Below are positions 1 to 29,939 of a stretch of DNA of 29,939 nucleotides, piece after piece. Within the stretch, counting starts at the first letter, position 1; every line of letters begins with the position of its first letter. The stretch is from a virus. Taxonomy: Duplodnaviria; Caudoviricetes. The translations under genes were made by a program, and so were the position numbers. Under the pieces are notes generated by a model. That model saw only the letters and a list, made by a program, of their open reading frames with translations, was not told the origin of the DNA and did no database searches. The stretch is from the IMG/VR virus record IMGVR_UViG_3300020045_000828, positions 1 to 29,939 of that record; one strand, given 5' to 3'.

Positions 1-121
1 AAATTCTTTCTTTGCCGTGTCCCCGCTTATCGCTTCAGTATTTCCTAAAGCAACAATTCCGGTTGCTGTTGAAGCGTCTTTGACATAGGCTGAACCAGAC
101 CAATGATAAAAGCCATTCAAA
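1..121. repeat. Direct terminal repeat, left copy (circular assembly overlap)
   Basis: Bases 1-121 are identical to 29819-29939, and a minus-strand ORF reads in frame across the join. Confidence 0.97.
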
Positions 122-510
122 GCCGTGTTTGCATCATTTGAAACCTTGTAAGAAACAAGCAATGTGCCAACAGCCGGAAGCGTTGCAAAGGTTGAATAAA
201 CTTTGACGCCTGAATATTGATTGACTTCAAGGTTTTCAACTTTAGCTTTCAACTGTTCAACATCATATTCAGAAGCACCCGACCAAACAACCGCCAATAT
301 TGCCGCAATTGTCAAGGCTTGCGTTCCATAATTCACACCGTCAACAAGGAATTGACTGAAGTTTGTTGAATTTACAAGCTGTCTTTTTGTGTCATATATT
401 GAATATATTCCTATTCCGTTTAATCCTTGCTTTAATGGCTGATAAATCCTTGCAAATCTTATTCCGTCAAGGTCAAAATACTTTGCTGAAACTGTGTTGA
501 TTGTAATCAT
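1..510 (-). CDS. N-terminal part of tail spike/fibre with SGNH hydrolase (continues across the junction into 29818..27860; about 822 aa in total)
   Basis: ATG at 510, immediately after the holin stop at 512. Reads MITINTVSAKYFDLDGIRFARIYQ... with no stop and is in frame with the TTG at 120 (=29938): 390 nt apart. Confidence 0.9.
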   Translation of the reverse strand, partial: MITINTVSAKYFDLDGIRFARIYQPLKQGLNGIGIYSIYDTKRQLVNSTNFSQFLVDGVNYGTQALTIAAILAVVWSGASEYDVEQLKAKVENLEVNQYSGVKVYSTFATLPAVGTLLVSYKVSNDANTALNGFYHWSGSAYVKDASTATGIVALGNTEAISGDTAKKEF

Positions 511-511
511 T

Positions 512-1000
512 TCAATTTTCGTTTTTGGTTACTGTTAATGATTCAGTTTTTGCCTGTTCAATGGTTGACAAAAGCTTCTGAATTATGGACATTAAAGAAC
601 GCCTGATTGTGTTCAAAAGCATTGTTATATAGTCCGTATTTTCAAGCGGCTTCTTTGTCTTTATACTGATTATATTGGTAATACATGAAATTGCTTCAGA
701 TACAACAATAATGTCCATTACAGCAACAACAAAGTATTTGAAATCAAAAGACACAGCTTTTCCAATCAAGGCAACAATCAAAGGAATGATCAAAATTGAA
801 AGCTTTCCAACCATGCCCCAAAGCAATATTTTAAAGCTGAATTTTTGATCAAGGCGCAAGGCTTTGGCAATTCCAAGACCTGAATCAAGCGTCATCATAA
901 TAAATAAAATCATTACTATTTCAGCACTAATTCCAAGATAAACAAAGACGGCATAAAGCACGGTCTTTGTGAAGTCAATTTCAATTGAATTCATAATCAA
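512..1000 (-). CDS. Phage holin (holin family 4-like)
   Basis: 162 aa with three to four hydrophobic segments and the motifs 'MMTLDSGLGIAKA', 'GMVGKL' and 'EAISCITNI'; lies next to a spanin-like gene. Confidence 0.8.
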   Translation of the reverse strand: MIMNSIEIDFTKTVLYAVFVYLGISAEIVMILFIMMTLDSGLGIAKALRLDQKFSFKILLWGMVGKLSILIIPLIVALIGKAVSFDFKYFVVAVMDIIVVSEAISCITNIISIKTKKPLENTDYITMLLNTIRRSLMSIIQKLLSTIEQAKTESLTVTKNEN

Positions 1001-1629
1001 AAAAGTTTTATTGCAATTCCTAAATGAACCCGCTTTTCATTGTCACAACCAACAGATAAAAGCCTTTTTCCGGTCTTGTTCATCATGTAAAGATTTAGAC
1101 CCACAACAGGAACTTCAGCTTGCTTTGTTGGAATACAAGTGAAAGCACCCGCGAAGAATGAAGGCTTTGCTTTATTGGTTTGAAATTGAACTGTCTTTGC
1201 TTTGGTTAAATAGTCAATTGATTGTTTCTTCATTGTTCCTGTCACTTCAGTCTTGACGGTTATTGTCTGAACTGAATCTTCAAGCGTTTCAATGTACAAT
1301 CTTTCAGTCACGGCTTCCTTGTAAAGCGTCAAGGCTTTCAAGCTGTCATTGTCCTGAATTGCCTGTTCATATTTCTGAAGCAATTCTTTGTTGATAGGAT
1401 TTTCAACCGGAACAATTTTTTCAATGATCTTTTTGCCTTTGGCTTCGGTATAAAAAGTGTCAATCCTGATTTCAGGAATTGGATTGTCAATGACTGCTTC
1501 ATTGCTTTGCGCCGGAATGACAACTTCTGTGACTTCATTCTTATTTCTTCCAATGGTGAAGACATAAATCAGCAATATTAAAATGATTGCAAAAGGAATG
1601 TTTTTTTTGTTTAAAATTAAACTTTTCAT
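997..1629 (-). CDS. Membrane-anchored lysis accessory protein (spanin-like)
   Basis: N-terminal TM helix (FAIILILLIYVFTIG), helical middle, C-terminal amphipathic beta strands ending in Phe; overlaps the holin start. Confidence 0.45.
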   Translation of the reverse strand: MKSLILNKKNIPFAIILILLIYVFTIGRNKNEVTEVVIPAQSNEAVIDNPIPEIRIDTFYTEAKGKKIIEKIVPVENPINKELLQKYEQAIQDNDSLKALTLYKEAVTERLYIETLEDSVQTITVKTEVTGTMKKQSIDYLTKAKTVQFQTNKAKPSFFAGAFTCIPTKQAEVPVVGLNLYMMNKTGKRLLSVGCDNEKRVHLGIAIKLF

Positions 1630-1666
1630 GATTTTTGATTTTTGGTTTTAAATGATTTATTTGTTT

Positions 1667-2104
1667 TTATTCTTTGGCGTCCTGATATGGAAAAACGTCA
1701 ACAATGTTTGAAGCTGAAACTGAAGTGACAGCATAAGGAACAAGCAAATAGTCAAGGCTTGAATTCATCCTGTTCAAAGCTTCCTGAACATTGTCAGCCA
1801 TGACAAGGAAGTTTTCCTTGATCTTCTTTTCTTTCTTTGCGCCTTCATCAAGTGTCACCATTGAAACGCCAACCTTGAACCAGAATTCACCGTCTTCAAA
1901 GGCAAACAATTCAACAATTTTTGAAGTCTTTATTGAATCAATCCTGAAGTCACCCCTGACAGATTCTTCCATTGCTTTGAAAGTCTTTGCTTCAGCGTCC
2001 GTCCAATTTACAGCGTCAAAAAGATAGGCTTCAGAAACCTTCTTTTCTTTCCCGTCTTCACCTGTCTTTCTATATTTGACTTTTACTTCAAAATACTTTT
2101 TCAT
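1667..2104 (-). CDS. DUF4494 family protein
   Basis: 'YFEVKVKY..TGEDGKEKKVSEAYLFDAVNWTDAEAK' plus a second similar half ending 'IVDVFPY' match the Bacteroidota DUF4494 pattern. Confidence 0.8.
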   Translation of the reverse strand: MKKYFEVKVKYRKTGEDGKEKKVSEAYLFDAVNWTDAEAKTFKAMEESVRGDFRIDSIKTSKIVELFAFEDGEFWFKVGVSMVTLDEGAKKEKKIKENFLVMADNVQEALNRMNSSLDYLLVPYAVTSVSASNIVDVFPYQDAKE

Positions 2105-2610
2105 AGTCTTGAAATTCTTAATGATGAAAATGAAGTTCCTGTCTTCTTATTCTTGCAATATCTTGCAAAAGCAACAGGATTTGAAACAATATACTTGTCA
2201 ATGAATTCAAACTTGATACCCGCGTCAATTTGCGCTTGTTTTGACAAGTCTTTGATTGTGTTCCGGTCTGTTCCTTCAGAATCTTGTGAAAGCTTTGAAA
2301 CCGCACCAAAAGGCGTTAAATTCACGTTTATTGTTTGAATGTATCTTGCAAATGTAAAATCAGCAAGCAAGCGTTTAATTCCGGCGTGTTTGTAGTCAAG
2401 ACCGGCAACAGTAAATTCAGAACCGTCAAGCAAATCTTTGAAAGATTCTTCAGTTGCATTCTTCAGAACATCAAAATAGAAGTCACCCAATATTTTCAGA
2501 AGGTCTGATTGTTGTGCAAGTGAAATTGCTTCTTCAATCTTTGCCGTGTCAAGCTTCGCGGAAATATTCCTGAAGCTTGCAAACTCTAAAGCTGTAATTA
2601 ATAGATTCAT
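2101..2610 (-). CDS. Putative head-tail adaptor / head completion protein
   Basis: 169-aa mostly helical protein directly after the portal; call rests on position and size. Confidence 0.5.
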   Translation of the reverse strand: MNLLITALEFASFRNISAKLDTAKIEEAISLAQQSDLLKILGDFYFDVLKNATEESFKDLLDGSEFTVAGLDYKHAGIKRLLADFTFARYIQTINVNLTPFGAVSKLSQDSEGTDRNTIKDLSKQAQIDAGIKFEFIDKYIVSNPVAFARYCKNKKTGTSFSSLRISRL

Positions 2611-2621
2611 TCTGTTTAATT

Positions 2622-3779
2622 TTATACTGTTTTGACTTCGTAAGGATTCACAACAGAAAGACCCGCGTCAATAGGCTTTGCAAACTTCTTCATGATCAGG
2701 CTGAATTGTTCTTCAAACTGATTCCTGTCTTCTTCGCGGCTTTCCCACAATTGACGCTTTGCTTCCTTTAGAAATTCGCCTGAATTACCAAACAAGGAAT
2801 TGTCAGAAGGATTAATCAGCATAAGCGGAACTTCAAAGGCTTTGCAAATATTCTTTTCAGCTTGCTTGTCTGAATATTCAAACAACTTGTCATTGTATTC
2901 ACCTGATAAGTCAGAAAGGTTGATTTGTTTTGAAAGGTCATCAGACTGTTGACCCGCTTCCAGAAGAACAACTTCACTTGAATTTTCCGCGCCCCTGACA
3001 AGGTTTAAATCTTTCTTGAAGTCTTTCCTGTCTTCATCTGTTGCGAATGGTTGAACAACAAGAAGCTTTGTGTTCAAGAATCCTTTTTGCGCGCCCTTGC
3101 TTCTGAAGGTTTGTGAATTGGATTCAAGAAGCATTTCAGAAAGAACCGGTTCAGCATCAGTCAAGGAATAAACAAAAGCTGAATCTTTCTTTATATGAAG
3201 GATTTGCCCGTTGTAATTTGAAATAATATCTTCAATCTTTGCGTCCTTTGCGTCCTTTCCGGCTTGCTTCCTGATTTGACCTTCAATGACTTTTGGGTCT
3301 GGATTGAACCTGTCACAAACAAGGAAGTCAGAAGGCTTGATTGACTTCTTTTTCTTCTTGTCCCAGTTGTCATATATCAGAAACTTTCCTGAATATCCTT
3401 TGTCATCAGCTTTCCCGACCCTACCTTCAACAACAGGAACAACAACAATTGAACGAATTTCAAAGGCTGAATTGTACCCTATATGTAAGTAACAATTATT
3501 ATGAATTGCATATTGACGCGCGGCAATTCGCAACACTTCATTCAGGCTTTGTCCTTTGCTGTTGACAATAACCTTTCCGGCTTCACCGAAAGATTTGCCA
3601 TAAATAGCTTTAGCAACCTTTCCGGCGCAAGCCTTTGCAGTCACAGACATTCCGATCAAAGCTTCAACCATTGAAGGGAAAGCATTGTCAGAACCAAAAT
3701 TGAAGCATTCAGTCCGCTTGTCAATCTTGACGTCAAGGATTGAAGCGGAAACTTGATTGAAGTGTAATTTCATTGTCAT
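2622..3779 (-). CDS. Portal protein
   Basis: 385 aa; N-terminal 'FGSDNAFP', 'GAENSSEVVLLE' and C-terminal 'NICKAFEVPLMLI' are typical portal motifs. Confidence 0.8.
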   Translation of the reverse strand: MTMKLHFNQVSASILDVKIDKRTECFNFGSDNAFPSMVEALIGMSVTAKACAGKVAKAIYGKSFGEAGKVIVNSKGQSLNEVLRIAARQYAIHNNCYLHIGYNSAFEIRSIVVVPVVEGRVGKADDKGYSGKFLIYDNWDKKKKKSIKPSDFLVCDRFNPDPKVIEGQIRKQAGKDAKDAKIEDIISNYNGQILHIKKDSAFVYSLTDAEPVLSEMLLESNSQTFRSKGAQKGFLNTKLLVVQPFATDEDRKDFKKDLNLVRGAENSSEVVLLEAGQQSDDLSKQINLSDLSGEYNDKLFEYSDKQAEKNICKAFEVPLMLINPSDNSLFGNSGEFLKEAKRQLWESREEDRNQFEEQFSLIMKKFAKPIDAGLSVVNPYEVKTV

Positions 3780-3798
3780 TGTCAGTTTTTTTTTATGA

Positions 3799-3840
3799 AA
3801 AAGGCTTCACCGTACTTCTGAAAGCAAAGCAAAGCCTTTT
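3799..3840 (-). terminator. Possible stem-loop/terminator upstream of the portal gene
   Basis: AAAAGGCTT (3799-3807) and AAGCCTTTT (3832-3840) form an inverted repeat with a long loop and a T-run on the minus strand. Confidence 0.3.
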
Positions 3841-3864
3841 AGTTTCTTGTGGCTTCCGTACTTT

Positions 3865-4623
3865 TTAAGCTTTTATCTTGTCAATGAAATCTTTTATTGA
3901 CGTTGCTTTGATTTCTGGATATTTGGCGCGCAATTCCTTCAATGATAGTGTTGAAAGGTCTTGAACGTCTTCAGAAGTTCCGGTTGCGTTTGCGGCGGCT
4001 AATTCACCAGCAATTTCAGCTTCTTCTTCAGCGGTTAAAGTTCCGGCTTCAGTTCCGGCTTCTTCTTTTCCTTCTTCAGTTTCATCAATGTTGCCTTCAG
4101 TTTGCGTTCCGGCTTCAGTCAAAGTCTTTTCAGAAGTTCCGGCGGCGGCTTCAGGTGAAGTTATTCCGGCTAATTTTTCAGATTTGTCAGCGGCGGCTTG
4201 AAGTTCAGCTTCAATTGCAAGGCGGTTCATTTTTTCCTTTGGTGTTTCTTTGTCAACGCCGTCAATCAGGATTGTTTCCCAGTTGGAAGGATAGACGGCA
4301 AACAAACTGATTCTTGCTGGATTTGTCCGCAAAAATTCAATTGCTTTTTCATCTGTCAAGTTTCCGTTTGAAATGGTTGTTCTGTCACCTTTGGCGTTTT
4401 TATATTGCGCGGCGTGACGTTTAAATTTAAACTGTGTCATTCTGTAAATGTTTTTAAGTGAAAGAATCATATAGTTAATATCTGAAGGACAAGAACGGCA
4501 AACGCGCCGCCCTGTCTTTTCAAGATAATCAGAAGCAAGCAATTCAATGTTCTTCAGAATATCCTGTTTAGTTCCTTCAAGTATTTCAATGATTGACAAT
4601 GATTGTTTTTTTTCAACAAACAT
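3865..4623 (-). CDS. Hypothetical virion-associated protein with CxxC, acidic EAGT-rich linker and short C-terminal helical domain
   Basis: 252-aa ORF in the late operon with 'VCRSCP', a low-complexity acidic linker and C-terminal 'DLSTLSLKELRAKY' (HeH/Rho-N-like). Confidence 0.6.
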   Translation of the reverse strand: MFVEKKQSLSIIEILEGTKQDILKNIELLASDYLEKTGRRVCRSCPSDINYMILSLKNIYRMTQFKFKRHAAQYKNAKGDRTTISNGNLTDEKAIEFLRTNPARISLFAVYPSNWETILIDGVDKETPKEKMNRLAIEAELQAAADKSEKLAGITSPEAAAGTSEKTLTEAGTQTEGNIDETEEGKEEAGTEAGTLTAEEEAEIAGELAAANATGTSEDVQDLSTLSLKELRAKYPEIKATSIKDFIDKIKA

Positions 4624-4635
4624 AATAAAGAGAAT

Positions 4636-4671
4636 TTAAAAAGGCTGAACAATTTTTGTCATTCAGCCTTT
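4636..4671 (-). terminator. Rho-independent terminator after the capsid and tail tube genes
   Basis: AAAGGCTGAA (4640-4649) / TTCAGCCTTT (4662-4671) stem with a T-run on the minus strand, just past the stop at 4675. Confidence 0.65.
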
Positions 4672-4674
4672 AAA

Positions 4675-5253
4675 TTATACGACAGCAAACAAAGCGTCAA
4701 AGGTTGCTTTTGAAACAACATAAGAAGTTTCAAGAAATACGTTGTAAGGATATTGTTCAACGTCACCTTCTTCAGTTGCAAGCGTGAACAGAATTGAACC
4801 TGAATTTTCAAGCGTGTTTTCTGTCATTTCAGAAAGCTTCATTCCGCAATCCCAGCCGCGAACCTTAAAGGCTTCAACGTTCAAAAGACCTTTGTATTTG
4901 CTTTCATAAACCACAACAAAACGCCCGTTCTTTAATTCATTTGCGGTTTCAGCGTGTTCAGCGGTTGTTGTTCCTATTCTTGCAAGGAAGCTGTGAAGGA
5001 AGCCGTCAACGTTTTCTGTTGAAGGCGCAAATGAACTGTTTGAACTTGCAAGGTCTTTATACCATTCAACCGCAATTCCGGTTGTTCCGGCTTTCAATGC
5101 AAGTTCAGTAATTTTTGAACCAGCCTTTGTTGAACCCGCAAAATCAATGTCATCCCAGTTGATCAAAACAGCTTTTCCGCCGTCAATACCTTTCTTTGGC
5201 GCGTCCGCGCAATCGAAAAGAATGTCATTTGTTACTTTTTTATTACAAGCCAT
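4675..5253 (-). CDS. Major tail (tube) protein
   Basis: 192-aa beta-rich protein ('MAC...ILFDC...GIDGG.AVLIN', 'RFVVVYE', 'GWDCGM') following the capsid gene and preceding a terminator, as expected for an abundant structural protein. Confidence 0.6.
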   Translation of the reverse strand: MACNKKVTNDILFDCADAPKKGIDGGKAVLINWDDIDFAGSTKAGSKITELALKAGTTGIAVEWYKDLASSNSSFAPSTENVDGFLHSFLARIGTTTAEHAETANELKNGRFVVVYESKYKGLLNVEAFKVRGWDCGMKLSEMTENTLENSGSILFTLATEEGDVEQYPYNVFLETSYVVSKATFDALFAVV

Positions 5254-5339
5254 GTTGTATAGATTTTTTTATGAAGTTAGATTTCTTGAAAGGAAGTCTG
5301 AATTTCTTCAAGCTTCCAGTTCAATCACCTAAATCCAAA

Positions 5340-6254
5340 TTACACACTCAAAGTGAATTCAACAAGTTCATCAATATTCACAGGCGTCACACCTGATTTT
5401 GCTTTTGTTCTGAAATAGGTCTTGTCATCATCTTCAGAATACCAAATTTTCATAAGTGTTTCTTCGTCTTCAACGTCCATTCCGACAACAAAGGAAGAAC
5501 CGCGTCCGGCAAACATTCTGTCAGTTCCATTCAACCCGCGAACCTTGCGCAAGATTTTACCTGAACCACCAATTTTATAAGTTTCACCGTCATTTTCAGC
5601 ACTAAAGAAATAATTGTTCGCGGCTTTCACGGCGGCAATGTAAAGGTCAAAAGTGTCGTTCCCTACAAAGACGGCAAAGTCTTCAGCGTCTTTCACGTCA
5701 ACATCAGCGGCAACAATCATGTCATCAACCAAACCAACAACATTTGCTTTTGTGATTTCTGTTGCATTTGATGTGTTTCCGTCAACGGCGTCACCGTCCG
5801 CGTCAATCTTCTTAATGAAGCCGTCAAATAAAGGATAAGTTCCGGTTGTGTCACCTTGCCAGTATGTCAATTCAAGTTGTTTTTGAATTGACGAAACTTT
5901 CACGTCAACAACTTTTTCTTGCCACATTTGCGGCGTGTCAGCATTTGAAGAGCCGGGCGCAAGTACTGTGTTTGGAAACTTTTTCTGAAGGTCATCCTGA
6001 CAGAATCCTTCATAATATTCCCATTGCTGAACTTCAATAAAAGCTTCAGTCACGGTTGTTGTTCCTGAAGGCGTTTTGCAAGTTCCTTTCTGAATTGTTG
6101 CGTCACCTTCAATTTTTGGGATTGAAGTTTTCCCTTTCACGTTTGTCATGAAACGTGCAAATTTTCCTGTGTCCCCGCCGGAAAATAGCGTTGCAGTCAA
6201 AAAGGCGTTTTCCCTTGCTACATAGTCAGTAAAGCCTGTTACATCGTAAGCCAT
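5340..6254 (-). CDS. Major capsid protein (HK97-fold)
   Basis: 304 aa directly after the protease-scaffold; 'ELTYWQGDT', 'FDGFIKKI' and terminal 'FRTKAKSGV' fit capsid proteins. Confidence 0.85.
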   Translation of the reverse strand: MAYDVTGFTDYVARENAFLTATLFSGGDTGKFARFMTNVKGKTSIPKIEGDATIQKGTCKTPSGTTTVTEAFIEVQQWEYYEGFCQDDLQKKFPNTVLAPGSSNADTPQMWQEKVVDVKVSSIQKQLELTYWQGDTTGTYPLFDGFIKKIDADGDAVDGNTSNATEITKANVVGLVDDMIVAADVDVKDAEDFAVFVGNDTFDLYIAAVKAANNYFFSAENDGETYKIGGSGKILRKVRGLNGTDRMFAGRGSSFVVGMDVEDEETLMKIWYSEDDDKTYFRTKAKSGVTPVNIDELVEFTLSV

Positions 6255-6278
6255 TGTTGATAAATTTTAAGTTAATAA

Positions 6279-7595
6279 TTATTGTTTTTTTGTTCTTGTC
6301 AATAGAACTGAAGCTTGTGAAGGCTTCACTTCAGGCGCGCTTTCCTGTTCACGTTCTTCAGCGTTGAATTCTTTGCTTCCAAACTTCTTTTTCAAAGCTT
6401 TGATTTCATTGTCCTTCAGAACAAGACTTGCTTCAAATTCAGCTTTCAATTCTTCCTTTGCTTTTTTTGTTACCTTTTCAAGCAACTTATCAAAGGTCAA
6501 TTCAGCGGAAATCTGAACTTCTTCTTCCTTTGCGGCGGCGGCTTCTTTAATCAGGACAATGACGCCTGTTGCATCAGTCACAACGCGTCTTCCGTCTGAC
6601 AACTGAAATTCACCTGAACCGATTGTCACTTCATTCCCGTCCCAGTCTTTATATTTGACAACGTCACCAACAGCAAAAGTTGTGTTTACAACTTCCATTG
6701 TCCAAACTGAAATTTGTTGAACTTCTTCAGCAATAACTTCAGCCGGAACTTCAACTTCCGTTTCTTTTGGAAGCACTTCAGAAACTTTGCCGCTAACAAA
6801 GACAAGCGTTGATTCTTCAACGGACGGCATAATATAAGAACCGTCTGGAATTGGCGCGCCGTCAATGGTTGCCGCGTCCCCTACTTTTGGAACGTCACCC
6901 GCCGCAAGATCAGGAAAGACAATGTCAGTTCCGTTTGAATCCTGAAGCGTCATTTCAGCGTTTATTTCAACGCTGTCATCTTCTTTCAAATATGCTGAAA
7001 TATCAGCAAGCAATTTTTTGAAGAAGTTTTTGTCTTTCTTCTTTTCCGTCATCTCATAATTTTTAGATTCATGAATATTTAATTCAGCAACAGCTTCAGC
7101 CGTCACTTTTATTTTTGTGGCAAATCCAAAGTCAACAGCTTCAGAACCGGAAATGAAGGTTTCATTGTCAAGAAGGTTTCTGACTGTTGCTTCATCAATT
7201 GCAAGGAATTCAGAATAAAATGAAGCAAAGTCATTTTCCATTGTCCGCAAAGCTTCAGCAACCATTTCAAGACGTTCAGCATTTCCTTCAACTTTCGCCC
7301 AAGCAAAATGTATCATTAAAGCCTTGTCAATGTCTTCAACAATTCTTTCACGTCCGGCGGCAAATATTTTTGCGGCAATTGAATAAGCTTTGTCTGTGAT
7401 TGTGGTGACCGGAATTTCAGCGTCAATTCCTTTCAAATAAGTATAAATTGATTCACCTTGTTCAACGTTTCCGCCTTGTGAATGAATAACCGCGTCAAGT
7501 GAATCAGGACTGTCAAAAGACTTGAATTGTCTGATAACATCAACAAGCGTTGTGTCCGTTCCTATCTTTCCAGTAATATAAACTATTGCCTTCAT
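6279..7595 (-). CDS. ClpP-type prohead protease fused to a scaffold region
   Basis: ClpP motifs 'IHSQGGNV', 'AYSIAA' (Ser), 'LMIHFAW' (His), 'ETFISGSEAVDFGFA'; acidic coiled-coil C-terminus. Start set at ATG 7595. Confidence 0.85.
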   Translation of the reverse strand: MKAIVYITGKIGTDTTLVDVIRQFKSFDSPDSLDAVIHSQGGNVEQGESIYTYLKGIDAEIPVTTITDKAYSIAAKIFAAGRERIVEDIDKALMIHFAWAKVEGNAERLEMVAEALRTMENDFASFYSEFLAIDEATVRNLLDNETFISGSEAVDFGFATKIKVTAEAVAELNIHESKNYEMTEKKKDKNFFKKLLADISAYLKEDDSVEINAEMTLQDSNGTDIVFPDLAAGDVPKVGDAATIDGAPIPDGSYIMPSVEESTLVFVSGKVSEVLPKETEVEVPAEVIAEEVQQISVWTMEVVNTTFAVGDVVKYKDWDGNEVTIGSGEFQLSDGRRVVTDATGVIVLIKEAAAAKEEEVQISAELTFDKLLEKVTKKAKEELKAEFEASLVLKDNEIKALKKKFGSKEFNAEEREQESAPEVKPSQASVLLTRTKKQ

Positions 7596-7863: not shown

Positions 7864-8085
7864 ATGAACACAAATCAGCCTTTTGACTACACCGTGACAA
7901 GAAAGTCTTTCACGTTCACCACTTGTCCAAAGTGTGACGGTTCAGGCGTCCGGCGTCATACTTTCCGAAAAATGGCATTCATTGAAGATTGCCCGCATTG
8001 TGAAGGAACAGGATTGAAAACTTTTGTCATAAATGAAGAAGTTTCACTTATAACCGTATTGAAAGAACTGTTAATTCTTAAATAA
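7864..8085 (+). CDS. DnaJ-type zinc-finger protein (paralog 1)
   Basis: Two CxxCxGxG motifs (CPKCDGSG, CPHCEGTG). Confidence 0.75.
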   Translation: MNTNQPFDYTVTRKSFTFTTCPKCDGSGVRRHTFRKMAFIEDCPHCEGTGLKTFVINEEVSLITVLKELLILK

Positions 8086-8096
8086 ATTACACACAC

Positions 8097-8543
8097 ATGA
8101 AACAAATCAACAAAGCGGCTTCATTAAAGTTGCAAGAACCTATCATGAAAGAATCAGAAGTTGACCGTCTGGAAGAAACTGAACTTCCTTTGAACGCCAA
8201 AGTCAAGACACTTCTGTTGACACTTCAAAGCAAACCTTTTCAAGTTATGCTTTCCGGTGAAAAGACCGTTGAATTCAGAAAGCCGTCTGACTGGATCAAA
8301 AGCCGCCTGTTTAATAAGGACGGAAGCCGGAAGGAATATGACGTCATTAAGTTTGTAAACGGTTACGGTGAAGACAAGCCTTTCTTTGTGGCAATCTTTG
8401 ACGGCTTTGACAACTTCACACGCGGAAAGTACAATGAATGTGCAAATCAACTTATTTATTCAAACGGTCTTGAAGTTATCCTTGAAGAAGGTGACTTTCA
8501 AATTTATCTGGGTAACATTCTAAAGAAAGGAAACCTGAAATGA
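8097..8543 (+). CDS. ASCH (PUA-like) domain protein
   Basis: 'LTLQSKPFQVMLSGEKTVEFR' matches the ASCH GxKxxExR signature, followed by 'YDVIKFVNGY'. Confidence 0.8.
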   Translation: MKQINKAASLKLQEPIMKESEVDRLEETELPLNAKVKTLLLTLQSKPFQVMLSGEKTVEFRKPSDWIKSRLFNKDGSRKEYDVIKFVNGYGEDKPFFVAIFDGFDNFTRGKYNECANQLIYSNGLEVILEEGDFQIYLGNILKKGNLK

Positions 8544-8845
8544 CAAAAGAACATTTTTTTTCAATTGTTAAATGGCAAAGTGAAACATTTCCAACCGCTT
8601 CAACCTTTTCCAAAATCAAACACCTTCAGCAAGAAGTTGAAGAATTGCTTTTTGAAATTACCACCAAAGGCAAAGGAATCAATCATGAATTTGCTGACTG
8701 TTTTATGCTTCTTTTTGGCGCGGCGGCTTCTGAAGGTCTGTCTTATGATGACATTTGCAAATCTATTGATGAAAAAATGCAAATAAATAAGGCGCGCAAA
8801 TGGGGAAAGCCTGACAAAAACGGCGTTCAAAATCATATAAAATAA
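8540..8845 (+). CDS. DUF550 / MazG-fold dNTP pyrophosphohydrolase
   Basis: 'WQSETF', 'HLQQEVEEL', 'EFADCFMLL' and 'KMQINKARKW' are DUF550-type motifs. Confidence 0.8.
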   Translation: MTKEHFFSIVKWQSETFPTASTFSKIKHLQQEVEELLFEITTKGKGINHEFADCFMLLFGAAASEGLSYDDICKSIDEKMQINKARKWGKPDKNGVQNHIK

Positions 8846-8849
8846 AGCT

Positions 8850-9065
8850 ATGTCAAACAAAGTTGAATATAATGTCAAGAAGAAGACAACCGCTTTTGTT
8901 CAATGTTCTGACTGTTCTGGAACTGGTAAAAAATCAAGAACTTTTCAGGGTGCAAAGTTTGTTGACAATTGCTTCAGGTGCAAAGGAACAGGACGCGAAG
9001 CAATAACACATGAAACGGACGTCACGCTTCTTCAAGCTTTGAAGGAATTGAACCTGATTAAATAA
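8850..9065 (+). CDS. DnaJ-type zinc-finger protein (paralog 2)
   Basis: CSDCSGTG and CFRCKGTG; aligns end to end with 7864..8085. Confidence 0.75.
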   Translation: MSNKVEYNVKKKTTAFVQCSDCSGTGKKSRTFQGAKFVDNCFRCKGTGREAITHETDVTLLQALKELNLIK

Positions 9066-9069
9066 ACCT

Positions 9070-9237
9070 ATGAGATATTTAATAATAGCAACCGGATTTG
9101 AACCAGCCTTCACAGAATGGTTTGAAAGTGAAAATCATTTCAACGCTGAACTTGATATGATTGTCATTGACCTTGCAAAAGGTTTATATACTAAAGACGG
9201 CGAAAGCTGGAAAGAAATTGAACATGATCATTTATAA
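9070..9237 (+). CDS. Hypothetical protein (55 aa)
   Basis: Not in the ORF track; reads MRYLIIATGFEPAFTEWF...EIEHDHL and fills the operon gap exactly. Confidence 0.7.
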   Translation: MRYLIIATGFEPAFTEWFESENHFNAELDMIVIDLAKGLYTKDGESWKEIEHDHL

Positions 9238-9245
9238 TTTAAACC

Positions 9246-9428
9246 ATGCCAAAAGATAAAATCCAAAACTTTAAACTTGAAGAAGACGTCAAGGCGGACT
9301 TTGAAAAGCTTTGCGCGGAAAACTTCACAACGCCGTCACATGAATTGCGGTTGCTTGTTCACAAATGGATTAAAGCACACAATTCAAAACCTATTTCAAT
9401 AAACGATTTAAAACAAAAGAATTCATGA
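9246..9428 (+). CDS. Ribbon-helix-helix (CopG/Arc-like) DNA-binding protein
   Basis: 'IQNFKLEEDVKADFEKLCAENFTTPSHELRLLVHKWI' has the strand-helix-turn-helix RHH pattern. Confidence 0.7.
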   Translation: MPKDKIQNFKLEEDVKADFEKLCAENFTTPSHELRLLVHKWIKAHNSKPISINDLKQKNS

Positions 9429-9871
9429 AGGTAAAAGAAACAAAGGTTTGCGCGGGTGAAGATTGCAACGAAGAATTCAGACCTTTTAAATCAACTGACA
9501 AGTTTTGTTCCGCTGGTTGTGCTTATAAGTCCCAGAAGCCAAAAACAGCAAAGAAGCAAACACCAATCAAAAGGACGCCAATCAAGCAAGCTTCAGACAA
9601 GCGGCGGAAAGAATCCTATATTTATGCAAAGGAAAGGAAGTTGTTTCTTGCACTTCCTGAAAACAAAGTTTGCACCGTTGCAAAAGCCGTGTTCAATGAA
9701 ACCCTTCCGGCTTGCGAAATCCACCACAAAGCCGGAAGGCGCGGAAAGTTCCTTGTTTATGTTCCTTTTTGGCTTGCGGTTTCAAGGAAAGGTCACAACT
9801 GGATTCATGCAAACCCAGAAGAAGCCTATTCACGCGGCTTCCTTATTCATTCATCAACCGTCAAAATCTAA
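9425..9871 (+). CDS. Zinc-finger plus HNH-like nuclease (NinG-like architecture)
   Basis: N-terminal C-x4-C...FCSxxC finger; C-terminal 'EIHHKAGR...WLAVSRKGHNWIH'. Confidence 0.65.
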   Translation: MKVKETKVCAGEDCNEEFRPFKSTDKFCSAGCAYKSQKPKTAKKQTPIKRTPIKQASDKRRKESYIYAKERKLFLALPENKVCTVAKAVFNETLPACEIHHKAGRRGKFLVYVPFWLAVSRKGHNWIHANPEEAYSRGFLIHSSTVKI

Positions 9872-9875
9872 TTCA

Positions 9876-10061
9876 ATGACCGATTTTCAACGCCTGAAGG
9901 ACACGCTTCAACAAATCAATTGTCAATTCACTTCAACACCTACATTGATAGGAACAACGCTTTCAGTCTTTTCTGAAACAAAGAAAGGAAACCTTGAAAT
10001 GATGTTTGAATTTGACTGTGAAGGCAACTTTTTAAGAACAATTCACACTTCTTCCTTATAA
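9876..10061 (+). CDS. Hypothetical protein (61 aa)
   Basis: ATG at 9876 follows the HNH stop; this is the credible 3' part of the 9456..10061 ORF. Confidence 0.6.
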   Translation: MTDFQRLKDTLQQINCQFTSTPTLIGTTLSVFSETKKGNLEMMFEFDCEGNFLRTIHTSSL

Positions 10062-10107
10062 CATTTTTTTGACATATCTGACAGCCTTGACCCGTTGTAA
10101 TTTTTTT

Positions 10108-10165
10108 AGTTTAATTTTTTACTGTTTTCGTTTGCTTTATTTATTTATTAGTTTAGTTTTGTACC
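10108..10165 (+). promoter_or_regulatory. Early promoter P1 (Bacteroidota -33/-7) with paired operator-like repeats
   Basis: TTTG (10131) + 19 nt + TAGTTTTG (10154-10161), with AGTTTAATTTTTTACTGT upstream. Confidence 0.85.
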
Positions 10166-10196
10166 GTATCAATTAACCTTTATATTTTTTAATTAT

Positions 10197-11141
10197 GGAC
10201 AGTTTAATAGAGAATGGATTATTGAAAATGCACTTGAAGAAGTTCAGGAATATGAAAAAGGTATTCTGACTATTCGCGGTCTTCATTACAGGCTTGTTTC
10301 ACGCGGAATGACAAACACAATTCAACATTACAAGCGCGTTGTTGCGGCAATGGGACAAGCGCGCTGGGAAAAACTCATTCCTTTTGACACATTTTCAGAC
10401 AATGACCGCGAAACAATTGGTGAAACGAAGATCACAGAAACAAACGTTGAAGATTCAGTTGAATCAACCAAATACACAATCAAGTACTGGTTGAAGAATT
10501 ACTTCAAAAACCGCTGGGAAAATCAAAAGTATTACCCTGAAGTTTTTATTGAAAAGAAAGCTTTGCAAGGCGTTTTCGGAAAGCCTTGTAAAAACATGGA
10601 AGTTGCGCTTTCACCCTGTAAAGGTTACCCTTCATTGACCTTCCTGAATGACGCTTCAAAAAGATTCATCAACGCCAAAAGAGAAGGCAAAATTCCGGTC
10701 ATTTTATACTTTGGGGACTATGACCCCAGCGGTGAAGACATTCCGCGAAGTATTCAGGAAAACCTTATTGATTTAGGCGTCAAAGTTGAAGTCAGAAGAA
10801 TCAGTCTTATGGAACATCAGGTTGTTGAATGGAATCTTCCACCAGCACCCGCAAAGACAACTGATTCAAGGACGGCAAACTGGGACGGTTTAGGACAAGT
10901 TGAACTTGACGCCGTTGACCCTAAAAAACTGCAAGGACTTTGTTTTGATGCAATCAACACGCTTTTCAATAAGGAAGCTTATTCTGAACTTTTGGACACT
11001 CAAAGAATTGAAAAAGCTGAATATCAATTTCAATTGAAAAACTTCATGAATGAACAACTAAATGAAGAAGATCAAGACGAAGATGAAGACGAAGACGAAG
11101 ACTTTGACGGATATGAAGATTTTGACGAAGATGACGAATAA
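10197..11141 (+). CDS. Spo11/TopoVI-A-like (winged helix + TOPRIM) protein with acidic tail; start codon problematic
   Basis: The open frame upstream of ATG 10308 carries 'LTIRGLHYRLVSRG'. TOPRIM motifs 'EVFIEKKAL', 'KGYPS', 'ILYFGDYDPSG', 'VELDA'. D/E-rich C-terminus. Confidence 0.7.
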   Translation, partial: GQFNREWIIENALEEVQEYEKGILTIRGLHYRLVSRGMTNTIQHYKRVVAAMGQARWEKLIPFDTFSDNDRETIGETKITETNVEDSVESTKYTIKYWLKNYFKNRWENQKYYPEVFIEKKALQGVFGKPCKNMEVALSPCKGYPSLTFLNDASKRFINAKREGKIPVILYFGDYDPSGEDIPRSIQENLIDLGVKVEVRRISLMEHQVVEWNLPPAPAKTTDSRTANWDGLGQVELDAVDPKKLQGLCFDAINTLFNKEAYSELLDTQRIEKAEYQFQLKNFMNEQLNEEDQDEDEDEDEDFDGYEDFDEDDE

Positions 11142-11147
11142 ATAAAT

Positions 11148-11205
11148 AGTTTAATTTTTTACTGTTTTTGTTTGGTAATTAAATTTATTGGTTTAAATTT
11201 GTACC
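11148..11205 (+). promoter_or_regulatory. Early promoter P2 with paired operator-like repeats
   Basis: TTTG (11171) + 19 nt + TAAATTTG (11194-11201); same upstream 18-mer as P1. Confidence 0.85.
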
Positions 11206-11229
11206 ATACAAAACAGTAAAGAATTAAAT

Positions 11230-11400: not shown

Positions 11401-11411
11401 ATCAATTTATC

Positions 11412-11995: not shown

Positions 11996-11996
11996 T

Positions 11997-12996: not shown

Positions 12997-13020
12997 ATTA
13001 AAACACAAATAAGCAAAGTC

Positions 13021-13078: not shown

Positions 13079-13101
13079 ATTCATTTTATAAAGATAGACA
13101 C

Positions 13102-24995: not shown

Positions 24996-25535
24996 TTATT
25001 TTGTTTTAATTTTTCCCATTTCATGACTTAAATCAGACGCCGTCTTTCTCATTAATAGAATGGTGAAAACTTCAGAATAAGCCATGTTCATATAATGACT
25101 ATACTTTGTAGCGTCCCCACCTGAAAGCATTTCAAGCGTGTTGTAAATACCGAATTTTGCCATTCTTTCACCGCCGTTCACCGCTTCCCATTTCAAATTC
25201 GATTCTGAAGGCGTCAAAGCGTTTTCTTCAGCCGTAACAATAAGATTCAATTGTTCACGGATTGAATTCAGCAAACCGAAAAATTCAATGATAGGAAAGT
25301 CAAGAACTTCTTCTTCAGTACATTTTTGAACCTTTGAAATTATCTTTATCAAGTCACGGTCTTCACCTGAATCAATGGTTTGCTTGACAAGTTCAACGTG
25401 TTTCAATTTCATGTTGAAAAGGTCACGCTTTGTTTCCTTTGGCTTCACGTAACGCAAGGCAACAACATAGTTTTGAATCAAGTCTTGTTCCTGATTCAAT
25501 AAGTCAATCAATTTGAAGTTTTCAATTTCTATCAT
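24996..25535 (-). CDS. Hypothetical morphogenesis protein (possible tail assembly chaperone)
   Basis: 179-aa helical ORF translationally coupled to TerL. Confidence 0.5.
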   Translation of the reverse strand: MIEIENFKLIDLLNQEQDLIQNYVVALRYVKPKETKRDLFNMKLKHVELVKQTIDSGEDRDLIKIISKVQKCTEEEVLDFPIIEFFGLLNSIREQLNLIVTAEENALTPSESNLKWEAVNGGERMAKFGIYNTLEMLSGGDATKYSHYMNMAYSEVFTILLMRKTASDLSHEMGKIKTK

Positions 25536-26722
25536 TATTTTACAAACTTAAAACTATTTCCAACATTTGAAGACTTTGCCAACATTTCAGCAAAATAATA
25601 TCTGACAGGGTCAATCAAGTGATTCCAGTCATCAACCGGAACACCAAGCAATTCACCCGCTTTGTTCATCTTATAAGAATAATTTTCAAATTCTTCAACG
25701 GCGTTCTTTCCCACAACAACAAGTTCAAATTCTTGCATGACTGAAATCCCAAAGTCAATGTCTTTATTGTCCGCGCCTTTTATCTTTATTCCGTAGCTTT
25801 GCAACTCTTTTATTGACTTTGGTTCAGCACTATCAGCAATAATCAACCCGCTGAAAAGTTGCGTGTCTTGTTTAATCCTTGCGGCAATCTGTGAATTCAG
25901 AAGACCTTTTTCATAAAGATATTCCTGAATGTAGATTTTGCCGTCATGCCTGTATAGTTTTGCAATTCCTGTTGGGTCATTGCTGAAACCCCAGTCAAGG
26001 ACGCCCGCAAGATATTGCGCGCCCGCTGGAATTTGATTTGCTTCTTTCCAGTTTTCAAAAATGACGCCTTCAGTAATTCCAAGAAGACCAAGACCCAGAA
26101 CGCGCCACTTGTTTTTGAAATATTTGCTTCCTTCATCAGCCTTCTTTTTGAACCAAAGAATTGAATCCTTTTCTTTTGGCGGAATGAATTCATTGTGTGT
26201 GAAATTCAGAATGATAAAATCAACGTGCGGTTCACCTATCAATTCTTTATGTGCCCAAAATTTTCGGCGCGGGTTGAAGTCAAGAATTGTGAAGTCTGAA
26301 GTCCTTGAATAAAGTTCAATATAGGTTGAAAACTTTATTGAATCAGCTTCATTCAAATATAAGTGTGTCCGGCGTGAACCAAGCCTTGACCCTTCACCGT
26401 CAACGCTGAAGAATTCAATCAGGTTTGAACCATATTGATAAATATGACGCGTGTTATTTATTTCAAATCTGTCATAAAGACCCCAACTTTTCAGAATCCT
26501 TTCAAAGTCACGCAAAGCACCTGATAAAAGGTTAGGCATACTTTCCGCAACAACGGACAAGACAAGATTTTCACGCTTTGAAATTGCAAGCAATGTGAAC
26601 AACATCAAGATTGAAATTGTCTTTGATGAACCTTTTCCGCCCTGAACAATACGGACGTCTTTTGTAAGGTTGCAAATCTTTTCAAATGCTGTTGTTGTTT
26701 GAAATTGCCCTGTCAAACTCAT
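25535..26722 (-). CDS. terL: Terminase large subunit (PBSX/SPP1-like)
   Basis: Walker A 'VQGGKGSSKT', Walker B 'LYLNEA', 'LDFNP', nuclease motifs 'LDWGFSNDP', 'ADSAEP', 'NHLIDPVRY'. Confidence 0.95.
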   Translation of the reverse strand: MSLTGQFQTTTAFEKICNLTKDVRIVQGGKGSSKTISILMLFTLLAISKRENLVLSVVAESMPNLLSGALRDFERILKSWGLYDRFEINNTRHIYQYGSNLIEFFSVDGEGSRLGSRRTHLYLNEADSIKFSTYIELYSRTSDFTILDFNPRRKFWAHKELIGEPHVDFIILNFTHNEFIPPKEKDSILWFKKKADEGSKYFKNKWRVLGLGLLGITEGVIFENWKEANQIPAGAQYLAGVLDWGFSNDPTGIAKLYRHDGKIYIQEYLYEKGLLNSQIAARIKQDTQLFSGLIIADSAEPKSIKELQSYGIKIKGADNKDIDFGISVMQEFELVVVGKNAVEEFENYSYKMNKAGELLGVPVDDWNHLIDPVRYYFAEMLAKSSNVGNSFKFVK

Positions 26723-27294
26723 TTTGTGCCGGAAATTATGCCTTCAATTATTTTACTGTGTTTCTCATTGGAAGCAAAGATTGTGATTTCATTAACCTTC
26801 TGTTTGTTGTCTTCTTCATAGAATCCTATATGCTTGTTAATCATATCAATTGCCCGTTCTTTAGATACAAAATGAAGTTCAGTTGTTTCTTCAGTTCCGG
26901 TCAAGTTTCCGTCTTTGTCATAAAAGTTCCGTGAATACTTCTTGAATTTAGTAATCAGGCGGCGGACTTCAATCGGAAGTTCTTTGATTTGTTCCGCTGA
27001 CAAGTTGATTGTTTCTGTTATATCTGACTGAACCCAGTTTTGAAGTTCTTTCAAAATTCCTTCATGCGTTGATTCAATAACCTTTGCGGCGGCTTCATGC
27101 TTTTCATGAATATAAGCTTTCATTTCCGGCAATGATTGAAGACGGGAAAAGTTGACAGTTGCGGTTGTGTCCTTCTTAATGTTTGGGTAAAATTTCCGAT
27201 AAGCCGCCGCCCCGTTGAACTTATTGACAAACCATTCGTCAACAATCCTTTTATATTTTTCAACTGAAGTCTTTGACAGGTTGCGCTTTTTCAT
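26719..27294 (-). CDS. terS: Terminase small subunit
   Basis: N-terminal HTH 'FNGAAAYRKFY...TATVNFSRL' and C-terminal 'SKERAIDMINKHIG'; directly upstream of TerL. Confidence 0.85.
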   Translation of the reverse strand: MKKRNLSKTSVEKYKRIVDEWFVNKFNGAAAYRKFYPNIKKDTTATVNFSRLQSLPEMKAYIHEKHEAAAKVIESTHEGILKELQNWVQSDITETINLSAEQIKELPIEVRRLITKFKKYSRNFYDKDGNLTGTEETTELHFVSKERAIDMINKHIGFYEEDNKQKVNEITIFASNEKHSKIIEGIISGTK

Positions 27295-27863
27295 CAAACT
27301 AAAATTTTAAATTTTTCAAATTCTTCTTTCATTGCTTTGTCATAAGGAATCCGCCCGTATTTGACGGCTAATTCGCGAAATCCTGAACCGTTATAAATTG
27401 AAGCAACGGTTGACCAATCTTTTGAAATTAAAGCCGCCTGAAGCCTTGAATCCGTTTCAATGAATTTGCATATCTGCCAAACTTGACGGTCAAGGCTTTT
27501 CTTTGCGTCATCCCACATTAAACCAACTGAAGCAAAACCAAGCCGCCGGAAATGGAAACCCATAATTTGACCAAGTCCAATTGAACAAGAAAGCATTGCC
27601 GCCGTTGAATCCTTCCTGAAGGCGTCATTGAAAGCAATCCATTCTTTTGACTGAACATCAACCTTGTTCACAGACCACAAACCGGACGGCGCAAAAGCGG
27701 CTTTCTTTCTGAACCAGACAGGTTCAAACTGAATGATCAATTTGCCCGTCTTTTCATCAAAGCCTTTGCCGCCCGTTTCAACTGAAATGAAGGCGGCAAC
27801 GGCAACCCAATCAAGACCAAATTCAGCGGCAAAAACTTTGATTAAAGGAATTAACTTTTTCAT
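27294..27863 (-). CDS. Endolysin, N-acetylmuramidase (DUF3380 family)
   Basis: 'AFISVETGGKGF', 'IQFEPVWF', 'SIGLGQIMGFHF', 'ASIYNGSGF'. Confidence 0.9.
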   Translation of the reverse strand: MKKLIPLIKVFAAEFGLDWVAVAAFISVETGGKGFDEKTGKLIIQFEPVWFRKKAAFAPSGLWSVNKVDVQSKEWIAFNDAFRKDSTAAMLSCSIGLGQIMGFHFRRLGFASVGLMWDDAKKSLDRQVWQICKFIETDSRLQAALISKDWSTVASIYNGSGFRELAVKYGRIPYDKAMKEEFEKFKILV

Positions 27864-29939
27864 GATAAAACACTTTTCAATTCATTGTAATACACTTCAT
27901 TCAATCTTTCATTTGACTTGTTTGTCCTGTCTGAATATGGGTGAACAAAGTCAAGACAGTTCATTTGAAAATTTGTAATGTTTCCGCTTCCGTCTTGCAT
28001 TTGTTTTGTCCAAGCCGTTCCGTAAGTAGTGTTATATGCTGAAATGTAATTTGTTGAATTTGGCACGAAATAACCGCTGATTCCTGACTTTTCCCAAATC
28101 TTCATAATAGGGAAAGAATATTTTGAAGCAATCATTTGTTGAATTTGACAAAGATAACTTCCATTTGTGCCGCCGTAATCAACAGTATTTTGAAAATAAC
28201 CGCCTATTATGATTTTAATGTTTGGGTTTATCTTCATTATTTCATCAAGAATGTAATTGAAAGCACCAATAAACTTTGACCTGTCTTTTGAATTCATATC
28301 AATTCCGCCCGCGTCAATTTCAATTTTGATCTTGTCCCTGTCATTGAATCCATGATCAAAAATTAAAACGTCACAAGTGTCTTTCACCCCGTTAATAAAA
28401 GGAAGAATGACGTTGTCAAAACTTGCGGCTTTGTATGTGTTCAATGTTGCTTCAGTAATTGTTCCGGCTGTCACTAAAGGTCTGAAAGCGGTTTCTTTTT
28501 CAGCCACAGTTGCGGACAATGACAGTCCGGCGGGCGTTGCATTGTTCCAAATTACATTGCTTGAACCGATTGCCTGATTGTGAAGTTTGAAACCTAAATT
28601 TCCGCAAGCAACTGAAGGATATTGACAACCGTTAGGAATTGACGTACCAATCCAAAGGACTTTATGATTGTATTGCGGTCTGATTTTCGTTTCAATCCTG
28701 TCAGCGTTTGAATAGTATTCTTTTATGTAATTTGCAGTATATCCGGCGTCAACTGGCAAAGACATACAAGTCACAGCATAATAATAAACATCAGCGGTCA
28801 AAACAACGGAATTCAAGACACGGTTGTCACTTCCAAGAATTGTTTTTGCTGGTATTACTTTCCTGTTTTCGTCATAAAAAGTCAATGCTGGATAAGCTGA
28901 ATAAAGTTTTGAATACACTTCAATTTTTATAATTCCTTTAGCGTATCGCATAGGCGTTCTAAACATATTCGCGCCCTTTTCATCATAAAAATTGCTGTCA
29001 GTTTGCCACCAACCAGTTTGATTAAAAACAGTATAGTCAAATGTTTTGAAGAAAAATGAATCAAGTTTTTTGTACCCACCATAAAAAAGACCATGCGTGA
29101 CAGTCCCAGCATAAACAACATATTTGACAAATTTTGTTCCTTGTGGCAATGTCAACTTATAGAAAATATCAGCCGTAATTCCGCCGCCGTATATCGTTTT
29201 TATTGCTGTCTTTTTTTCGTCATAAAATTCAAGAAGCTTGTAACCGCTATTTATTGAATTGGCAAATTTAATGTATAGGTTTTTATTCAAGGAAGCCAAA
29301 ACATTTATATAGTCAGTTGTTTCATAACTTCCGTTAGCACTTGCAAAAATTCCTGAAGTCCTTCCGGCTGAATCAGTAATTTTCAAAAGGTCTGATTCAA
29401 GGTTGAAATCATTTCCTAAAGGATAGCAATGAAGACTGTTGTTTATATAGCCGCCAACCGGATTAAAAGCAACATACAAAGCCGGAACTTCATCAATTGA
29501 AATCATTGTATTTGCAACCGGAATAAATGTTTCAAAAAGCGTGAATCTTACATATACTGAAGAAGCCGTTCCTGTGATTTGCGCCGTTGCTGAAGTTACT
29601 GAAGAAAGGAACGCCTTGTTTGCATCATACAAGCATATATAAGTATTTGTCCCGTAGGTCATATTAGTCACAATCTTTCTTCCTTGAACAATCGGAATGA
29701 AATCAGACGTGAAGTAATTTGTTCCGGCTGAAACGTTTCCGCCTATTGTCAAATAACCGTTTGACAATTTACTTAAATCTAAAAGATTGATTCCAAAGTT
29801 TTCAGTCACCTTCTTGTTAAATTCTTTCTTTGCCGTGTCCCCGCTTATCGCTTCAGTATTTCCTAAAGCAACAATTCCGGTTGCTGTTGAAGCGTCTTTG
29901 ACATAGGCTGAACCAGACCAATGATAAAAGCCATTCAAA
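27860..29939 (-). CDS. Tail spike/fibre, C-terminal part: three beta modules plus an SGNH/GDSL hydrolase
   Basis: SGNH blocks 'WIGTSI' (Ser), 'NQAIGSS' (Gly), 'DHGFND' (Asn), 'DFVHP' (Asp/His); continues from ATG 510 across the junction. Confidence 0.8.
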   Translation of the reverse strand, partial: LNGFYHWSGSAYVKDASTATGIVALGNTEAISGDTAKKEFNKKVTENFGINLLDLSKLSNGYLTIGGNVSAGTNYFTSDFIPIVQGRKIVTNMTYGTNTYICLYDANKAFLSSVTSATAQITGTASSVYVRFTLFETFIPVANTMISIDEVPALYVAFNPVGGYINNSLHCYPLGNDFNLESDLLKITDSAGRTSGIFASANGSYETTDYINVLASLNKNLYIKFANSINSGYKLLEFYDEKKTAIKTIYGGGITADIFYKLTLPQGTKFVKYVVYAGTVTHGLFYGGYKKLDSFFFKTFDYTVFNQTGWWQTDSNFYDEKGANMFRTPMRYAKGIIKIEVYSKLYSAYPALTFYDENRKVIPAKTILGSDNRVLNSVVLTADVYYYAVTCMSLPVDAGYTANYIKEYYSNADRIETKIRPQYNHKVLWIGTSIPNGCQYPSVACGNLGFKLHNQAIGSSNVIWNNATPAGLSLSATVAEKETAFRPLVTAGTITEATLNTYKAASFDNVILPFINGVKDTCDVLIFDHGFNDRDKIKIEIDAGGIDMNSKDRSKFIGAFNYILDEIMKINPNIKIIIGGYFQNTVDYGGTNGSYLCQIQQMIASKYSFPIMKIWEKSGISGYFVPNSTNYISAYNTTYGTAWTKQMQDGSGNITNFQMNCLDFVHPYSDRTNKSNERLNEVYYNELKSVLS
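29819..29939. repeat. Direct terminal repeat, right copy (circular assembly overlap)
   Basis: Identical to 1-121. Confidence 0.97.

Follow-up and report, generated by a model that had tools for sequence, protein, structure and literature searches.

Avoidance of particular DNA words by phages is known for restriction sites of 4-8 bp (Rusinov et al. 2018, PMC6286503; this and the other papers given by PMC number are cited for those parts of them that were available). Three-base words are documented as motifs of phosphorothioate (PT) modification, namely C*AG and C*CA (PMC11931770), and a BREX (bacteriophage exclusion) type 4 system in Bacteroides salyersiae DSM18765 places PT at 0.2% of A*CTC, 17% of C*CTC and 4% of T*CTC sites, with three Parabacteroides isolates bearing a T*C mark for which no longer consensus is given (PMC12914056). 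In BREX type 1 it is unmarked asymmetric sites on phage DNA that trigger defence (PMC11842806). Here we looked at a stretch of tailed-phage DNA of 29,939 nucleotides (IMG/VR record IMGVR_UViG_3300020045_000828, Duplodnaviria; Caudoviricetes, referred to as the window over its full length) from which the three-base word GAG and its complement CTC have almost disappeared, and we weigh what kind of system may have read that word.

The trimer GAG/CTC in the window

Trimer counts are given as observed/expected (O/E) ratios with the expectation taken from a first-order Markov (dinucleotide) model unless otherwise stated. The plus strand of the window holds 12 GAG and 17 CTC, that is 29 sites where 605 are expected (O/E 0.05, z about -23), which is the lowest rank among the 32 trimer pairs, and at a GC content of 37.7% base composition alone predicts 662. 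An earlier reading made from the letters of the DNA alone (the sequence-only reading) had put the remainder at about 30 against several hundred expected, which is borne out, and the GC content roughly in the mid-30s, and its seven example positions of surviving sites are all correct within 1 base. Each 3 kb of the window contains 0-7 sites and the loss is thus genome-wide. Glu is encoded by GAA 713 times and by GAG 7 times and CTC accounts for one of 772 Leu codons, as had been noticed by eye. Frame and coding/non-coding counts are based on the 41 genes called in this analysis. Shuffling synonymous codons, with proteins and codon usage kept, gives 78 and 44 expected GAG in the two off-frames where 1 and 9 are found, and 65 and 94 expected CTC where 3 and 5 are found, and the non-coding DNA has 3 sites against 29 expected. 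The depletion therefore extends to all frames and both strands as claimed, and it is strand-symmetric and persists under both of the nulls, Markov and codon-shuffled, that had been proposed as a check.

Ten of the 29 survivors, four of them at start codons called here, read ATGAG, in which the G of Met cannot change silently. The sequence-only reading had placed survivors at gene starts or in intergenic DNA; the former is correct for these sites, but 26 of the 29 lie inside genes and few are intergenic. An enrichment of survivors in non-conserved DNA was considered and rejected (23 in 21.8 kb versus 6 in 8.1 kb, p=0.84).

The manner in which sites were lost is informative as to cause. In frame 1, GAG/CTC can be lost silently only through its middle base, and there the Gly codon GGA is used in 0 of 149 cases before G as opposed to 202 of 385 elsewhere, and the Ala codon GCT in 1 of 44 cases before C as opposed to 225 of 621 elsewhere. 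A context-specific mutator would remove the word only from sites that can accept C>T or G>A, and a neutral C-to-T mutator, which had been offered as one explanation, cannot produce this pattern. Message-strand GAG and CTC are equally avoided, proviruses included (relative rates 0.30 and 0.24), which points to selection on DNA and not on RNA or translation; proviruses at first seemed to show a message-strand bias, but this was gone under codon-conditional tests. All 16 NCTCN contexts stand at 0.00-0.15 when pooled over the window (G000) and the relatives G001-G003 described below, so the unit is the trimer itself. Selection acts on the DNA word: its loss spares no frame, orientation or flank and came about through substitutions at all three positions. 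We consider it probable that the selecting agent is a three-base DNA reader of some chemistry. Codon bias and Shine-Dalgarno avoidance, already thought insufficient by themselves in the sequence-only reading, are rejected together with codon reassignment by the codon shuffle, middle-base and strand tests. A neutral cause in the wider sense (mutator, codon or Shine-Dalgarno bias, or lineage-wide composition) could draw on the enrichment of TTC and CTT in the window, but with reverse-strand and non-coding sites purged as well as those in frame 1 it is largely refuted and extremely improbable.

Other words are also scarce, a feature missed when GAG/CTC alone was correctly singled out. TCG/CGA occurs 107 times against 665 expected (O/E 0.16) and is low in all eight flanks (0.02-0.24) and all frames; GCAG/CTGC occurs 9 times against 121 expected; GGCC, CTAG, GGNCC and GGNNCC are absent and many 4-6-mers are missing. 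CCA/TGG, the Ssp motif, is mildly low (O/E 0.55; 0.45 and 0.52 off-frame; 0.35-0.67 across its eight flanks). A co-depletion of CAC/GTG was dropped as it is also low in unpurged loci. We also observed a TA dinucleotide O/E of 0.42 and low counts of spaced words of the type I/IIB kind (ACN5GT 56/148, ACN7CT 51/149, AGN6TA 59/122, observed/expected).

The absence of GGCC, CTAG, GGNCC, GGNNCC and several 6-mers indicates heavy restriction-modification (RM) pressure, and raises the question as to whether many ordinary 4-6 bp RM sites containing GAG/CTC could sum to loss of the trimer, as had also been proposed for RM or BREX sites sharing a GAG core. GAG is a known type I half-site, and where a genome is partly relaxed the contexts differ among themselves (0.00-0.91 in L002 and L086 together, from small counts). 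Type II RM would however confine the loss to sites of 4-8 bp, which is seen only for the separate 4-6-mers, and a sum of sites fits poorly with 16 contexts that are all at or below 0.15, with the same trimer ranking lowest in unrelated phages whose hosts belong to other phyla and with 71 outgroup loci that lack many 4-mers and keep CTC at 0.76-1.24. We regard this explanation as quite unlikely.

Relatives, gene content and an unrelated purged group

The record is classed as having direct terminal repeats and as 100% complete, and the window is a complete tailed phage. Its relatives were collected with the terminase as marker, and the features used here are as follows.

1-29939, no strand: complete, circularly permuted genome of a tailed phage, with GAG/CTC (29 left, O/E 0.05) and TCG/CGA (107, O/E 0.16) purged
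29819-29939, no strand: terminal overlap of 121 bp, matching bases 1-121 (circular assembly)
25535-26722, minus strand: terminase large subunit (Pfam Terminase_3C/3), whose start ATGAGT is a survivor
5340-6254, minus strand: probable major capsid protein (PHROG 1623, weak match), with homologues at 53-57% in Flavobacteriaceae genomes
7864-17103, plus strand: non-virion gene block with exonuclease, HNH-like, Toprim-like and dATP/dGTP pyrophosphohydrolase genes
9070-9074, plus strand: ATGAG survivor at a start codon (other start-codon survivors at 14655, 16693 and, on the minus strand, 26722)

The best cultured match to the terminase is that of Cellulophaga phage phi46:1 (44%), and the capsid protein has no match among cultured phages. 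The genomes holding its homologues are named Aequorivita, Tenacibaculum soleae, Pseudotamlana and Corallibacter, all of which we take to belong to the Flavobacteriaceae, and because the homologues lie in that family the host is probably a member of it. A GTDB scan gave one match only, to Actinomycetota, which is spurious.

Relatives are denoted by G numbers for whole records and L numbers for loci or fragments, except that L130 is phage PA73. Three whole-record relatives are as purged as the window (GAG/CTC O/E of 0.09, 0.07 and 0.09 in G001, G002 and G003), and the others are relaxed to varying degrees: 0.26 in G006, 0.32 in G004, 0.40-0.55 in the low-GC relatives G005 and G007-G010, and among fragments 0.20 in L006 and L008, 0.47 in L002 and 1.52 in L004 (L102, at 0.99, is with 1.4 kb too short for judgement). 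G005 is itself divided, with 0.26 over bases 1-21000 and 0.96 beyond, in a recombinase and cargo segment. The 71 outgroup loci cited above have terminases at 34-38%, and phi46:1 and Flavobacterium phage 11b stand at 1.10 and 0.94; these two values and that of the G005 non-core segment speak against composition as a lineage-wide cause. As a background, 120 viral loci were drawn quasi-randomly with a neutral 14-mer and the 80 of at least 4 kb were used; no trimer in them falls below 0.37 and the median for CTC is 0.88, which makes the window value extreme. One background contig (L203, positions 1-7101) has CTC at 0.37 and CAG at 2.16 and is possibly another origin. The supposition in the sequence-only reading that the word is selected against by a host defence with a very short motif is supported in that the depletion survives codon shuffling, is strand-symmetric and is not lineage-wide among the viral loci compared.

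The trait changes readily along the tree, with G001 sister to L002 and G003 grouping with L004. In both terminase and capsid trees L002 is nested beside G001 within the purged group, from which we infer that it has likely regained the word; over five orthologous genes at 80% identity it has 27 sites to the 2 of G001. Among the site differences between these two, 16 of 28 are at the first C, a point in favour of the neutral cause dismissed above. In the L002 lineage there is an N6/N4 methyltransferase that G000-G010 lack; the DPPY methyltransferase of L002 (9495-10115, 207 aa) lies next to the tape measure gene. The methyltransferase was rejected as the specific cause of the regain, since GGCC, CCGG, GATC and TCG were regained too and the relaxation is general. 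Fragment L004 (1-13448, terminase 69%) is enriched for GAG/CTC, with CCTC at 2.12, low in CAG (0.60) and without a modification gene, and no further contig of it was found. The TCG/CGA purge is shared by the window and G001 only (0.16 and 0.17), with G002 at 0.85 and G003 without it. The presence of the same capsid family with a different terminase large subunit in G006 (L119:11731-13182) and G008 (L123:36-1271) suggests terminase exchange.

Convergence was sought among PA73-like phages using eight capsid relatives picked from 295 records, PA73 as a whole and the others over their first 40 kb. Six of the eight are purged at 0.01-0.13 (PA73 0.03, KL1 0.04, RcTitan 0.01, Eidolon 0.04, Shy 0.09, Langgrundblatt2 0.13), and Loki and Serbin stand at 0.64 and 0.94. 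As the eight are mutually related they count as one further origin and not six, and save for a 31% muramidase match in Serbin they have no protein in common with the window. Survivors in PA73 lie mostly just upstream of ATG and resemble ribosome-binding sites, with GGAGT found 18 times, GGAGA twice and GGAGG never; the GGAGT:GGAGG ratio is likewise 13:0 in KL1 and 17:0 in Shy, a preference that marks GAGT/ACTC as the cheapest flank. In Loki, too, GGAG sites read GGAGT and never GGAGG.

Gene content bears on whether the phage itself might be responsible, by encoding a GAG/CTC-specific nuclease against host DNA and removing the word for self-protection. Besides the genes listed, the window encodes a portal, Clp protease, tape measure, holin and muramidase, and no methyltransferase, polymerase, integrase or tRNA was found among its genes; nuclease-like genes are thus present without a methyltransferase, and the purge is deeper in genomes that have the lytic gene block than it is in proviruses, both as such a nuclease would have it. 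Against this, the conserved non-virion genes also occur in the less purged G004 and G006, proviruses without them are still partly purged and none of them is common to the PA73 group. No phage gene tracks the purge when gene content is compared among the relatives, and we hold a phage nuclease to be highly unlikely. Within the block an ASCH-like open reading frame (ORF) at 8097-8845 adjoins the dATP/dGTP pyrophosphohydrolase (PF04447), with two flanking DnaJ-type zinc-finger ORFs and no base-synthesis or polymerase gene. The ORF at 10308-11141, which resembles topoisomerase VI A/Toprim and has an acidic tail, is present in G002, G003 and G006 and was not found in G001 or G004.

Candidate readers of the three-base word

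The best-fitting known chemistry, three-base PT including N*CTC, had been missed in the sequence-only reading, whose idea of selection by a very short motif is supported. We tentatively propose a single-strand PT defence of the BREX type 4/Ssp kind as the reader, a candidate that we favour and to which we would give somewhat less than an even chance. A host defence telling self from non-self would read CTC on single strands, and the host would place sulfur marks on some of the CTC sites in its own genome. The defence complex would then be triggered when invading DNA presents unmarked sites, as BrxX is in BREX type 1, if that triggering carries over to type 4, as we infer. With an asymmetric word readable on either strand each site would cost fitness and both orientations would be removed by synonymous change, and lineages moving to hosts without the system would regain the word. 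TCG/CGA would possibly be the footprint of a second, later specificity.

The purged word is the CTC core of the BREX type 4 motif N*CTC, and the survivors in the window (ACTC 14/159, TCTC 10/200, CCTC 1/102, observed/expected) rank in keeping with modification in B. salyersiae, the context least modified there being the one most often left here, with an excess of ACTC (14 of 29, p=0.0095). The flank ranking CCTC > TCTC > ACTC is matched in the window, PA73, Shy and Langgrundblatt2 and not in G001-G003, and the ACTC excess is weak in G003 (p=0.032).

A number of observations weigh against a BREX type 4/Ssp reader. In G001, G002, RcTitan and Eidolon the excess of ACTC does not reach significance, and in G001-G003 some other context is lower than CCTC (0.11-0.14). 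GCTC is purged as well (4/140 in the window, 0/296 in PA73) although no G*C mark was seen in B. salyersiae (PMC12914056); the Dnd motif G*AGC/G*CTC could cover GCTC, in an ad hoc manner. The brxPCZL genes are rare, at 0.6% of a general genome set, and occur in 457 taxa (PMC12839542), and according to their source paper, as far as available, the anti-phage activity of brxPCZL variants awaits investigation. Characterised Ssp marks C*CA, and its effector SspE is switched on by host PT, no need for the motif on phage DNA being shown for it (PMC9646914, PMC13251355); were Ssp the reader CCA/TGG should have been the purged word, and it is only mildly low. The available table of systems has no brx-labelled Flavobacteriaceae among the rows listed, 20 rows that cover six aquatic genera (Tenacibaculum and Aequorivita among them) contain neither ssp nor brx, and no Flavobacteriaceae name appears among the best 120 of 3043 SspB homologues. 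In favour of such a reader, the rows listed place ssp clusters in at least 10 flavobacterial genomes, of Flavobacterium, Aquimarina, Formosa, Mangrovimonas and Altibacter (genera which we assume to be Flavobacteriaceae), and also in Burkholderia, Pseudomonas and Loktanella. DUF4007 genes were found on plasmids of Sphingomonas, Rhodobacteraceae and Hymenobacter, and a search for longer DUF4007 fusions gave 3 proteins.

An undescribed base-modification defence (methyltransferase-guided and BREX-like, type IIG/III-like or nicking) that reads GAG/CTC and marks one host strand would fit all of the evidence for selection and needs no exception for GCTC. The triggering of BREX type 1 by unmarked asymmetric phage sites (PMC11842806) offers a precedent, a CTCC m4C methyltransferase is known, this being the nearest methylated motif (PMC8919816), and the lineage of L002, which has regained the word, is the one with an added N6/N4 methyltransferase. 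That relaxation is general as described, and no three-base GAG or CTC methylation motif was found in those parts of the searched literature that were available, and we rate this alternative as unlikely.

Selection by a toxin that damages DNA and has a new specificity for CTC, be it a lethal deaminase or an ADP-ribosyltransferase like DarT, would also pass the middle-base test, and DarT motifs can be three bases long and vary between species (PMC7003065). The sequence-only reading had named a DarT-like enzyme acting on TNTC/TCTC-type motifs, but the known motifs TNTC and TTT/TCT are not depleted (observed/expected TATC 145/118, TGTC 317/229, TTTC 660/711, TCT 880/997) and are rejected as the target. 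Both characterised DarT motifs keep two thymidines where CTC has one (PMC7003065) and there is no strand bias, leaving a toxin distinctly improbable.

Significance and comparison with described systems

Term searches found no 'trinucleotide', '3 bp' or 'CTC' in the available text of PMC6286503 and nothing on trimers in that of PMC12707154, and the available part of PMC12904381 held nothing relevant. No report of a phage GAG/CTC purge was found in the literature searched, mostly outside subscription journals, which is weak evidence of novelty. New in the present case are that the purge arose independently in Bacteroidota, that another trimer is purged along with it and that a tree shows the trait being both gained and lost; also new are the ruling out of a neutral mutator and of the known DarT motifs and the naming of a specific motif as candidate. 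More broadly, there is close to an even chance that a widespread anti-phage system reads GAG/CTC in both Bacteroidota and Proteobacteria and drove unrelated phage families to rewrite their genomes, with exchangeable three-base specificities of which TCG would be the second.

A three-base target is so frequent that its full avoidance should cost much, yet two unrelated phage groups have reached 95-99% loss of one and the same word, which points to a strong and common selective agent. Some purged phages are cultured with hosts that are easy to work with (E. coli K-12 for Shy, R. capsulatus for RcTitan), and the agent can therefore be searched for directly. If the reading is true, trimer footprints in phages could be used to predict which motifs are recognised by Ssp/BREX type 4 systems not yet characterised, such as T*CG where isolates show T*C only, and confirmation of BREX type 4/Ssp would answer whether single-strand PT systems with partial marking also recognise the motif in DNA that enters the cell.

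Among described systems, the BREX type 4 of B. salyersiae shares with the window a CTC core, a single-strand mark and the phylum, and ACTC, the context least used there, is the most tolerated here. It differs in that GCTC is unmarked there and purged in the window, in belonging to a gut Bacteroides and not a flavobacterium, and in that neither a phage test nor motif avoidance by phages is reported in the available part of PMC12914056. SspABCD-SspE (PMC9646914, PMC13251355) likewise has a three-base single-strand consensus, is anti-phage and is present in Flavobacteriaceae; its motif is CCA, only mildly low in the window (0.55), and SspE is activated by host PT. DarTG2 (TNTC; TTT/TCT; PMC7003065) also reads a 3-4 base motif on single-stranded DNA, but its motifs are not depleted. 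Classic restriction-site avoidance (PMC6286503) resembles the present case in being a genome-wide two-strand loss of words by synonymous change, and its usual form is found in the window too with GGCC, CTAG and GGNCC absent; the word described here differs in being three bases long and asymmetric, and its loss reshapes the codon choice for Glu, Leu, Gly and Ala. The nearest likeness in phages is with the PA73/KL1/RcTitan-like siphoviruses, in which the same trimer is purged to 0.01-0.13 in 6 of 8 members, and which differ from the window in their Proteobacterial hosts, a GC content of about 54%, the lack of shared genes and the lack of a TCG purge.

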